This document shows positions 32,097 to 34,628 of a stretch of 64,000 bases of DNA, one piece after another. The stretch is from Parcubacteria group bacterium GW2011_GWC1_36_108 (GTDB taxonomy: Bacteria > Patescibacteriota > Minisyncoccia > Moranbacterales > GWC2-37-73). The translations under genes were made by a program, and so were the position numbers. The number at the start of each line of letters is the position of its first letter. Within the stretch, counting starts at the first letter, position 1. A model generated the notes under the pieces. It was given only the letters and a program-made list of their open reading frames with translations, ran no database searches and was not told the DNA's origin. The stretch spans positions 25,906-89,905 of the forward strand of contig LBRD01000002.1 in assembly GCA_000991245.1 (NCBI GenBank), read 5' to 3'.

Positions 32097-32786
32097 ATGG
32101 AATCATTGCATTCAAATAATTTAACTGGTGGGGCGACAGGAGGACTTAGCACTCAAAAGTATGTTGACGTGGAAGAAGTTCGTGATGGTGTTATTATTCT
32201 TAAAAACGGATCGCTGCGAGCCGTGCTTTTGGTTTCTTCGATAAACTTTGATTTGAAGGCGACCGAAGAACAGGATTCCATCATTAGCCAATATCAAAAT
32301 TTTCTAAACTCTTTGGATTTTCCAATGCAAATTATCGTCAGTTCTAGAAAATTAAACATAAATCCATATTTGGATTATTTGAAAAAAAAGGAAACACATC
32401 TTACCAATGAATTGTTGAGTTTGCAATTGGCAGAGTATCGCAATTTTATAAAAAATTTGGCAGATGTTTCAAATATTATGTCAAAGTTTTTTTATGTCGT
32501 GGTGCCTTTTCATCCGATTGAAAATGCTAAAAGCGGATTGATTGATCGTCTTTTTGGAGCAACAAATTCTCAGATGGCTGTTGCCAAAAGAAGAGAACTT
32601 TTTGATACATATAAAAATCAGCTTTGGCAAAGAGTTGATCACATCAGCGCTGGTCTTTCAGGAACAGGTGTGAAGGTAACACCGCTTAAGACTGAGGAAT
32701 TGATTGAACTTTTGTATAATTCATATAATCCATCAATACACAATAATTCTATTATTAAGGATATTGATAAAGTTGAATTAAGATAA
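32097..32786 (+). CDS. VirB4/TraC-family ATPase, N-terminal domain fragment
   Basis: YVDVEEVRDGVIILKNGSLRAVLLVSSINFDLKATEEQD matches the VirB4 N-terminal domain. In the same frame as 32805-34628, separated by a single TAA. Confidence 0.65.
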   Translation: MESLHSNNLTGGATGGLSTQKYVDVEEVRDGVIILKNGSLRAVLLVSSINFDLKATEEQDSIISQYQNFLNSLDFPMQIIVSSRKLNINPYLDYLKKKETHLTNELLSLQLAEYRNFIKNLADVSNIMSKFFYVVVPFHPIENAKSGLIDRLFGATNSQMAVAKRRELFDTYKNQLWQRVDHISAGLSGTGVKVTPLKTEELIELLYNSYNPSIHNNSIIKDIDKVELR

Positions 32787-32804
32787 ACAATAAAAAACAA
32801 GAAA

Positions 32805-34628
32805 ATGCTCGAATTATTTAAAAGTAAAAAAACAGCTTCGCCGATGGGTGCTATTTTGCAAAGCGAAGCGCTGTATCAGCGTGGTGTGGCAACAATCAAA
32901 GATTTGATTGCGCCATCTGCGATGAAAATAAGTTCAAATAATATTCAAGTGGGAGAAACATTTGCCAGGACCTTGTTCGTGGTGGCGTATCCTCGATATT
33001 TGCACTCGAATTGGTTTTCGCCGATTATCAACATCGATTTTTCGATGGATACGGCGATGTTTATTCATCCTATTGATACGGTTGAGGTTTTAAAGACTCT
33101 TAGAAAAAGTTCAACGCAAGTTCAATCACAAATTCACATTGAAGAACGTTCCGGGAAAATTCGTGATCCAATTCTGGAAACAGCGTTGCAAGACATTGAA
33201 GATCTTAGGGACAAACTGCAACAAGGCACGGAAAAGTTTTTTCGTTTTGGTTTGTATATGACGCTGTATGGAAGCACGATGGAAGAAGTTGAAAAAGCTC
33301 ATCAGCAAATCGAATCTATTTTGGAAGCTCAGTTGGTATATGTCAAACCTGCAGTTTTGAAAGTGGAACAAGGATTTTCTTCAACTGTTCCATTGGCAAA
33401 TGATGAACTTGATGTTGCCAATAATCTTAACACCTCTCCTCTTTCAACAACATTTCCTTTTGTTTCAGCTGATCTTTCTTCAAATGAAGGAATTTTGTAT
33501 GGAATCAATCGTCATAACAACAGTTTGATTTTGTTCGATCGTTTTAAGATGGAAAATGCAAATATGGTTGTGTTTTCTAAATCTGGTGGAGGAAAAAGTT
33601 ATACTGTAAAACTGGAAATTTTCAGATCATTGATGGTGGGAACAAATGTTATTGTTATTGACCCAGAAAATGAATACAAATATTTGTGCGAAACGGTGGG
33701 TGGAACTTTTATCAAGCTTTCACTTAATTCAAATTTTCATTTGAATCCGTTTGATTTGCCGCAGGTTGGAGAAGATGAAGATCCGGAAGATGTTTTGCGC
33801 AGCAATATCGCAAGTCTTATTGGACTTTTGCACATTATGCTTGGAGCAGTTACTCCAGAAGAAGATTCTATCTTGGATATTGCAATCCGTGAAACCTATG
33901 CAATGCGCGACATTACAGCGCAAAGTAATTTTAGGACTTTTAATTCCAATTCTTTTCCGACGATGTCTGACTTATATTCGGTGGTTCGAAATTCTGAAGG
34001 TGGGGAATCGATAGCGCGTCGTTTGGAAAAATATACAGAAGGTATTTTTTCTGGAGTTTTGAATCATCCAACCAACGTTCAGATCAACAATCAAATGGTG
34101 GTTTTCAACATTCGCGATCTTGAAGAACAGCTTAGACCGATTGCGATGTATACTATTTTGCAATTTATTTGGAATGAAATGCGTTCAACACTCAAGCAAC
34201 GAATAGTTGTTGTTGATGAGGCTTGGGTTATGATGCAAAATGAAGATGCCGCTTCTTTTCTTTTTGGAATTGCAAAAAGATGTCGTAAATATTACACAGG
34301 TCTTACAACTATCACTCAAGATATTGCTGACTTTATGAGTTCACGTTATGGAAAACCGATTGTGACGAACTCATCACTGCAACTTTTGCTTAGGCAATCT
34401 CCTGCTGCAATCGACACAATTTCGGATACTTTTTATCTAACAGAACAAGAAAAATTCTTGCTATTGGAAAGTAATGTTGGAGAAGGCATTTTATTTGCCG
34501 GAGCAAAACACGTTGCAATTAAAGTTATTGCTTCTTATGCAGAGGATCAAATTATAACTTCTGATCCTCGTCAGCTTATGGAGATTGAACAGGCAAAAAA
34601 GGATTTTGATGAAGAAGAAGGAGAATAG
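32805..34628 (+). CDS. VirB4/TraC/CagE-family T4SS ATPase, C-terminal ATPase domain
   Basis: Walker A FSKSGGGKSY. Walker B VVVDEAWVMM. Together the two ORFs give about 836 aa, typical VirB4 length. Confidence 0.8.
   Translation: MLELFKSKKTASPMGAILQSEALYQRGVATIKDLIAPSAMKISSNNIQVGETFARTLFVVAYPRYLHSNWFSPIINIDFSMDTAMFIHPIDTVEVLKTLRKSSTQVQSQIHIEERSGKIRDPILETALQDIEDLRDKLQQGTEKFFRFGLYMTLYGSTMEEVEKAHQQIESILEAQLVYVKPAVLKVEQGFSSTVPLANDELDVANNLNTSPLSTTFPFVSADLSSNEGILYGINRHNNSLILFDRFKMENANMVVFSKSGGGKSYTVKLEIFRSLMVGTNVIVIDPENEYKYLCETVGGTFIKLSLNSNFHLNPFDLPQVGEDEDPEDVLRSNIASLIGLLHIMLGAVTPEEDSILDIAIRETYAMRDITAQSNFRTFNSNSFPTMSDLYSVVRNSEGGESIARRLEKYTEGIFSGVLNHPTNVQINNQMVVFNIRDLEEQLRPIAMYTILQFIWNEMRSTLKQRIVVVDEAWVMMQNEDAASFLFGIAKRCRKYYTGLTTITQDIADFMSSRYGKPIVTNSSLQLLLRQSPAAIDTISDTFYLTEQEKFLLLESNVGEGILFAGAKHVAIKVIASYAEDQIITSDPRQLMEIEQAKKDFDEEEGE

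Follow-up and report, generated by a model that had tools for sequence, protein, structure and literature searches.

The locus described here lies on contig LBRD01000002.1 of Parcubacteria group bacterium GW2011_GWC1_36_108, in a stretch of 64,000 nucleotides (nt) that was analysed as a whole and is referred to below as the window. At positions 32097–34628, two adjacent open reading frames (ORFs) appear to encode the two parts of a VirB4-type ATPase belonging to a type IV secretion system (T4SS). Reading the sequence directly, ORF1 (32097–32786) encodes 229 amino acids (aa) with the C-terminus ...VELR and stops with a TAA at 32784–32786. ORF2 (32805–34628) encodes 607 aa between an ATG at 32805 and a TAG at 34626–34628. 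The two share one reading frame, so that their joint translation runs ...VELR*TIKNKKMLELF..., where the asterisk marks the stop. An earlier, first-pass annotation had presented this as a VirB4 split by a single in-frame TAA. Its coordinates for the two ORFs, the one TAA between them and the ATG 18 nt downstream were all confirmed. The cluster comprises, in order, two pilin-like genes, a PrgI/VirB3-like gene, a trsD-like gene (ORF1) and virB4 (ORF2), and a further T4SS-like gene is found at a distance:

30076..30510, + strand: T4SS pilin-like (VirB2-like) gene 1, 144 aa; PF18895 (T4SS_pilin), E = 5e-5, slightly under the gathering score
30540..31352, + strand: T4SS pilin-like (VirB2-like) gene 2, 270 aa; PF18895 (T4SS_pilin), E = 1.8e-18, in two stretches
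31516..31965, + strand: PrgI-family (VirB3-like) gene, 149 aa; PF12666 (PrgI), E = 1.1e-9
32097..32786, + strand: trsD-like gene, 229 aa; putative stand-alone homologue of the first ~175–200 residues of VirB4
32787..32804, + strand: intergenic spacer, 18 nt, A-rich; ACAATAAAAAACAAGAAA
32805..34628, + strand: virB4 ATPase gene, 607 aa; predicted rest of the VirB4 N-terminal domain and the P-loop ATPase domain
47346..49484, + strand: TrbL/VirB6-like membrane protein, 712 aa; PF04610 (TrbL), E = 1.5e-5, marginal at 25.3 bits (cut-off 25.9)

Profile searches place ORF1 at the beginning of VirB4. The protein matches the NCBIfam TrsD/TraD profile NF041427 (E = 7.6e-8, positions 28–142 of 201), and its matches to full-length VirB4/TrbE profiles are confined to their first ~110–200 positions. 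These comprise the VirB4 N-terminal parts of NF045975 (E = 7e-11, positions 104–233 of 894) and NF045971 (E = 8e-6, positions 3–111 of 752), TIGR00929 (E = 1.5e-3, positions 18–152 of 792) and an N-terminal match to TrbE PRK13891 (E = 3.5e-5). A Pfam scan of ORF1 gave no real match, the lone hit being a spurious Lenti_VIF_2 at E = 0.01; the precomputed Pfam annotation PF26593 is found on all ORF1 homologues listed. Searched by sequence against the PDB, ORF1 returned no match, and the link to TrwK came from the fold search only. There, an AlphaFold2 model of moderate confidence, built from a 12-sequence alignment of fairly close homologues, had as its 14 best Foldseek matches in the PDB exclusively chains of TrwK/VirB4 from the R388 T4SS (E 7e-5 to 2e-3, probability 1.00), and the next match followed at E = 0.25. 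On the strength of the VirB4/TrbE/TrsD profile matches, with the tentative fold matches of the model pointing the same way, we regard ORF1 as equivalent to the opening stretch of the N-terminal domain of VirB4.

ORF2, in turn, is by its sequence a VirB4-type T4SS ATPase. It passes the curated profile NF045971 (VirB4-like, CD1110 family), scoring 369.5 bits (E = 3e-110) where 325 are required. The match spans positions 180–734 of 752, so the extreme N-terminal region is absent from ORF2. The TraG P-loop domain PF19044 is detected in Pfam with E = 1.5e-28, the VirB4 C-terminal domain structure PDB 4ag5 aligns with E = 2.8e-50, and the PDB sequence search also aligned residues 126–554 of ORF2 to residues 301–736 of TrwK. 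Walker A (SGGGKS, residues 260–265, within 33576–33605) and Walker B (VVVDE, residues 468–472, within 34203–34226) are both intact. ORF2 is not a single full-length VirB4 polypeptide, and the part that it lacks at the N-terminus is encoded by ORF1.

Together, ORF1 and ORF2 cover a full VirB4. Their combined length of 836 aa compares with 750–890 aa for fused VirB4 proteins and their joint profile coverage runs end to end, which bears out the earlier statement that the combined length matches full-length VirB4. The division of domains proposed at the same time stands in so far as ORF1 is N-terminal and ORF2 carries the ATPase. It does not stand as to where the break lies. Since ORF1 corresponds to profile positions up to ~110–200 and ORF2 supplies what remains of the N-terminal domain in addition to the ATPase, the split falls inside the N-terminal domain and not at its boundary with the ATPase domain. 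Extrapolation from the alignment of ORF2 with TrwK puts the break at about TrwK residue 175.

A search for ORF1 homologues among 5.8 billion proteins returned 4,688, of which the best 120 were inspected. These share 66–98% identity with ORF1 and come from metagenome-assembled genomes (MAGs) of Candidatus Moranbacteria/Moraniibacteriota and other Patescibacteria. Nearly all measure 226–243 aa, with a few truncated entries of 185–220 aa. Searched exhaustively with HMMER, a set of 1.84 billion representatives at 50% identity yielded 2,324 clusters with E ≤ 1e-3. The top 150 of these, which were inspected, are 157–443 aa long at 34–58% identity. A fused form of VirB4 length was found neither among the best 120 homologues nor among the best 150 of the 2,324 cluster representatives.

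The junction itself was measured in 80 genomic loci fetched from Moraniibacteriota relatives, 79 of which contain both genes, the 80th ending before the ATPase gene. This comparison with orthologues, which the first-pass annotation had proposed, gave a uniform answer: in 79 of 79 loci, at 57–99% identity, the ORF1 homologue ends at one shared alignment position (...[IV]EL[RKS]) and a VirB4 ATPase gene lies downstream. The stop codon is TAA in 56 loci, TAG in 16 and TGA in seven. The frame of the ATPase gene relative to the ORF1 homologue is 0, 1 or 2 in 26, 29 and 24 loci respectively (chi-square p = 0.79 against one third each), and the distance between the two genes ranges from –5 nt, an overlap, to 561 nt. 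Among the 26 in-frame relatives, a single stop separates the genes in 12 and 2–14 stops intervene in the other 14. We found no conservation of the spacer among the relatives in length, sequence or phase. Locus L001 (DNVR01000012.1, UBA12142), an independent assembly, matches the window both in this TAA and in every letter of the 18-nt spacer; its proteins are 99% identical to those of the window, with differences at 20–28% of synonymous sites. A single in-frame stop with a short linker of six codons is present in L001 and also in L011.

The ratio of nonsynonymous to synonymous substitution rates (dN/dS, Nei-Gojobori) is 0.03–0.09 for ORF1 and 0.002–0.05 for ORF2, indicating strong purifying selection on both. 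Synonymous divergence (dS) has saturated or nearly so in all relatives but the closest, with values from about 1.2 to incalculable, and amounts to 0.23–0.34 in the closest. Low dN/dS combined with saturated dS implies that both genes have long been maintained as separate functional units. In addition, the ATG of ORF2 coincides with the conserved N-terminus of the ATPase gene in relatives. With the same stop position, random frames, a variable spacer and purifying selection among relatives, the TAA at 32784–32786 reads as a gene boundary, the ordinary natural stop of the trsD-like gene. The frame shared by ORF1 and ORF2 would then be a one-in-three coincidence, because the 26 of 79 relatives that are in frame correspond to the chance expectation.

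Seen in isolation, the geometry of the locus could also be explained by a recent nonsense mutation from a sense codon to TAA that inactivated a full-length virB4 and left a pseudogene or truncated gene. The two ORFs are in frame, one stop lies between them and their 836 aa add up to nearly the length of a fused VirB4. However, relatives down to 57% identity all stop at this place and none has a sense codon there, no fused form appeared in either set of inspected homologues, and dN/dS stays low although dS is at or near saturation in all but the closest relative. The start of ORF2 at the N-terminus conserved in relatives' ATPase genes likewise argues against a decaying gene, and we give this explanation next to no credence. 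A false stop produced by a sequencing or assembly error is a general possibility in metagenome assemblies, and nothing beyond that speaks for it here. The independent assembly L001 has the TAA and the spacer unchanged despite its many synonymous differences, and every other relative also carries a stop at this position, making such an error extremely improbable.

Programmed read-through, or reassignment of TAA to a sense codon, would yield a functional fused full-length VirB4. It could draw on the single in-frame stop and the six-codon linker in the window, L001 and L011, and on the single stop in 12 of the 26 in-frame relatives. Yet the random distribution of frames leaves two thirds of the relatives unable to read through, TAA, TAG and TGA are interchangeable at the stop, and the spacer is not conserved, nor is there any sign of a conserved structure or context. 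An A follows the stop, and TAAA is not typically a leaky stop context. Moreover, TAA is the commonest stop among the 52 long ORFs of the window (32 of 52, with TAG and TGA also used) and thus is not reassigned. The Bacillota counterparts described below are out of frame or overlapping. The first-pass annotation had also suggested a survey for further in-frame TAA codons. Run on the window, it showed that other neighbours in frame with a single stop do exist, but they are two pairs only, both separated by TGA and both made up of unrelated genes. An Acyl_transf_3 gene (1058–2167, – strand) adjoins a gene for a TSP3-repeat protein (56–1045, – strand), and a GIY-YIG gene (7814–8152, + strand) adjoins an S4/pseudouridine synthase gene (8168–9199, + strand). 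Both pairs are instances of chance phasing and not of recoding. Altogether, read-through or reassignment as the route to a functional VirB4 is very unlikely. We rate just as low the idea that, in the minority of lineages, this one included, with an in-frame single stop and a spacer just a few codons long, a small fraction of ribosomes reads through and delivers a fused VirB4 that enters the hexamer in a distinct role, for example by nucleating assembly. Such low-level fusion is not required by the comparative data, and two thirds of the relatives are incapable of it.

We therefore favour, at a probability of about 95%, the reading that 32097–34628 holds two intact, separately translated genes, trsD-like and virB4, of a chromosomal Candidatus Moraniibacteriota T4SS. 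Among the options that the first-pass annotation had listed, the genuine two-polypeptide VirB4 is the one borne out by the shared stop position, the lack of fused forms among the inspected homologues and the selection acting on both ORFs. Its headline, taken as an event at one codon, finds no support, as the stop is conserved across the Moraniibacteriota relatives. Its options of a recent inactivating mutation and a sequencing error are rejected, and so is programmed read-through as a conserved feature, given frames at random, three different stop codons, several intervening stops and spacers of up to ~560 nt.

According to the two-gene reading, the trsD-like gene and virB4 would be co-transcribed, and translation of ORF2 would start at its own ATG at 32805, either independently or by re-initiation across the 18-nt spacer. 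Re-initiation could operate in those trsD-virB4 pairs that have short spacers. The TrsD-like protein may then bind the VirB4 ATPase non-covalently and complete its N-terminal domain. It would probably supply the membrane-proximal surface that binds VirB3 (PrgI), as in the R388 TrwM-TrwK structures, with the PrgI-like gene immediately upstream of the trsD-like gene presumably providing the VirB3 role here. The resulting TrsD-like/VirB4 complex would drive a T4SS of the monoderm type, in its assembly as well as in secretion.

Several points weigh against this reading or parts of it. ORF1 scores only 32.4 bits with the curated TrsD/TraD profile NF041427, for which the cut-off is 200, and in BLASTP the pSK41 TrsD aligns to it weakly (25% identity over 68 residues, E = 2e-5). 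The label "TrsD-like" is thus founded on remote homology and gene position, and ORF1 appears to be a remote relative of the staphylococcal/enterococcal TrsD/TraD subfamily, not a strict member of it. The AlphaFold2 model reached moderate confidence (predicted local distance difference test score, pLDDT, 66.5; predicted template modelling score, pTM, 0.56), and its template modelling scores to TrwK are modest at 0.41–0.46, with TMq between 0.30 and 0.46 in the fold search. The proposed association of TrsD with VirB4 and its VirB3-binding role are drawn by analogy from the structures of fused VirB4 proteins. Finally, occasional read-through at the TAA at 32784–32786 may take place, being compatible with the sequence alone.

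When comparing the locus with known systems, the split trsD-virB4 arrangement proves to be an already known two-polypeptide VirB4 system. It is reminiscent of the staphylococcal plasmids pSK41/pGO1 (MPF_FATA class, pGO1 subclass), where the gene for a small protein likewise immediately precedes that of a VirB4-type ATPase without the extreme N-terminus. The sizes are close, with 227 aa for the pSK41 trsD product against 229 aa in the window, and 672 aa against 607 aa for the ATPase (TraE/TrsE, DUF87/VirB4). TraE/TrsE and ORF2 are 24% identical over 588 columns and their N-termini are collinear, pSK41 residue 36 corresponding to ORF2 residue 33. Whereas the window has an 18-nt spacer and a shared frame, pSK41 has a spacer of 14 nt and its ATPase gene is in a different frame. 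The two systems resemble each other very little in sequence (25% over 68 residues for TrsD and 24% for the ATPase), and pSK41 is a conjugative plasmid, unlike the window locus, which is chromosomal and lies among IF-2, KsgA and UvrD.

In plasmids of Pontibacillus (L081) and Geobacillus (L082), ORF1 homologues of 274 aa and 318 aa respectively are followed by VirB4-like ATPases of 621 aa and 636 aa, with stop and start overlapping in both. The Geobacillus gene upstream of the ORF1 homologue is annotated as PrgI-family, like the one in the window, and the Pontibacillus gene at this position as an unnamed hypothetical. The same split of VirB4 at the same point is thus present in conjugative plasmids of cultured Bacillota.

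The locus also matches the T4SS described for Patescibacteria, in which TrsD is the most abundant component and is remotely homologous to the N-terminal portion of VirB4 (PMC12102498, Microb Genom 2025). That study counted 2,272 TrsD homologues in Patescibacteria, 1,664 of them adjoining virB4, and the trsD of Ca. Southlakia epibionticum is listed as essential (PMC12102498). The gene set is the same as in the window (VirB2-like pilins, PrgI/VirB3, TrsD, VirB4 and VirB6), TrsD usually adjoins virB4, and both belong to one taxon, Moraniibacteriota MAGs reaching 99% identity. There is no substantive difference; the in-frame, single-stop geometry is coincidental and local, and is not discussed in that paper. 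Fused VirB4 proteins, such as TrwK of R388, the CD1110 family of Clostridioides integrative and conjugative elements and the Mbov_0397 family, consist of one polypeptide where the window has two. ORF1 (CD1110 profile positions 3–111) and ORF2 (180–734) nevertheless span such proteins end to end.

The window thus adds one more instance of the trsD-virB4 pair canonical for the (monoderm-type) T4SS of the ultra-small Patescibacteria and carries little weight as a discovery. It does show how a gene that looks interrupted can turn out to be a natural and conserved boundary between two genes; such a pair should neither be flagged as a pseudogene nor merged by annotation pipelines. The real question concerns the role of the stand-alone N-terminal piece of VirB4, TrsD, and not the stop codon.

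Signals around the two genes are in keeping with those of their neighbours. A Shine-Dalgarno-like motif is missing upstream of nearly all 52 long ORFs in the window, and starts lie in A/T-rich runs. The start context of ORF2, A/T-rich and without a Shine-Dalgarno motif, is typical in this respect. A promoter and terminator scan of 29900–35600 detected no terminator-like site between ORF1 and ORF2, which is consistent with their co-transcription. Promoter-like matches in the same region exceeded the expectation from shuffling by only about two standard deviations, which carries little weight in such AT-rich DNA.

Variants of the pair were observed among relatives. In seven more distant Moraniibacteriota loci (L050, L056, L058, L068, L071, L075 and L077), the VirB4 ORF begins right after the trsD stop, and the protein has an extra N-terminal extension of ~150–185 aa before the region that matches residue 1 of the window ORF2. 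Some TrsD-like family members of 320–443 aa (P0129, P0134, P0140, P0156, P0158, P0171, P0217, P0234 and others) carry the homologous domain N-terminally, followed by a C-terminal extension of 100–230 aa. A small ORF (MTQNSNPYRDLENRTTEFAKKVIRLCKEL...) is inserted in the trsD-virB4 spacer of L039 (2078–2573), where it is intact, and of L040 (4688–4939), where it is truncated; we take it to resemble the four-helix-bundle proteins of rRNA intervening sequences.

A palindromic repeat, found in the window between the PrgI-like gene and the trsD-like gene (31966–32076), recurs at 50289–50311 and 51524–51546. The element is made up of a pair of GTCATTCCCG-N-CGGGAATC hairpins with inverted orientation and is like a miniature inverted-repeat transposable element (MITE) or a repetitive extragenic palindromic (REP) element. 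Its core, GTCATTCCCG N4-12 CGGGAAT, occurs three times in the window against an expectation of zero. Elements like it are also present within the trsD-virB4 spacers of L032, L046 and L003, indicating that the intergenic gap tolerates insertions.

The T4SS cluster is chromosomal and flanked by housekeeping genes encoding IF-2, KsgA, a ComM-like Mg-chelatase and UvrD. Neither a relaxase nor a coupling protein was identified by Pfam annotation of the window proteins within the immediate cluster. A LysM-CHAP hydrolase and the marginal TrbL/VirB6-like protein are encoded 10–15 kb beyond it, and the latter, 13 kb away, probably belongs to this T4SS. Immediately before the pilin genes lies a gene for an SBP_bac_8 extracellular solute-binding protein (489 aa, 28602–30071), and directly downstream of virB4 a 221-aa ORF without a Pfam match (34724–35389). 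Each of these could be an accessory component of the T4SS. GC skew is positive over the whole 64 kb, which places the window within one replichore.

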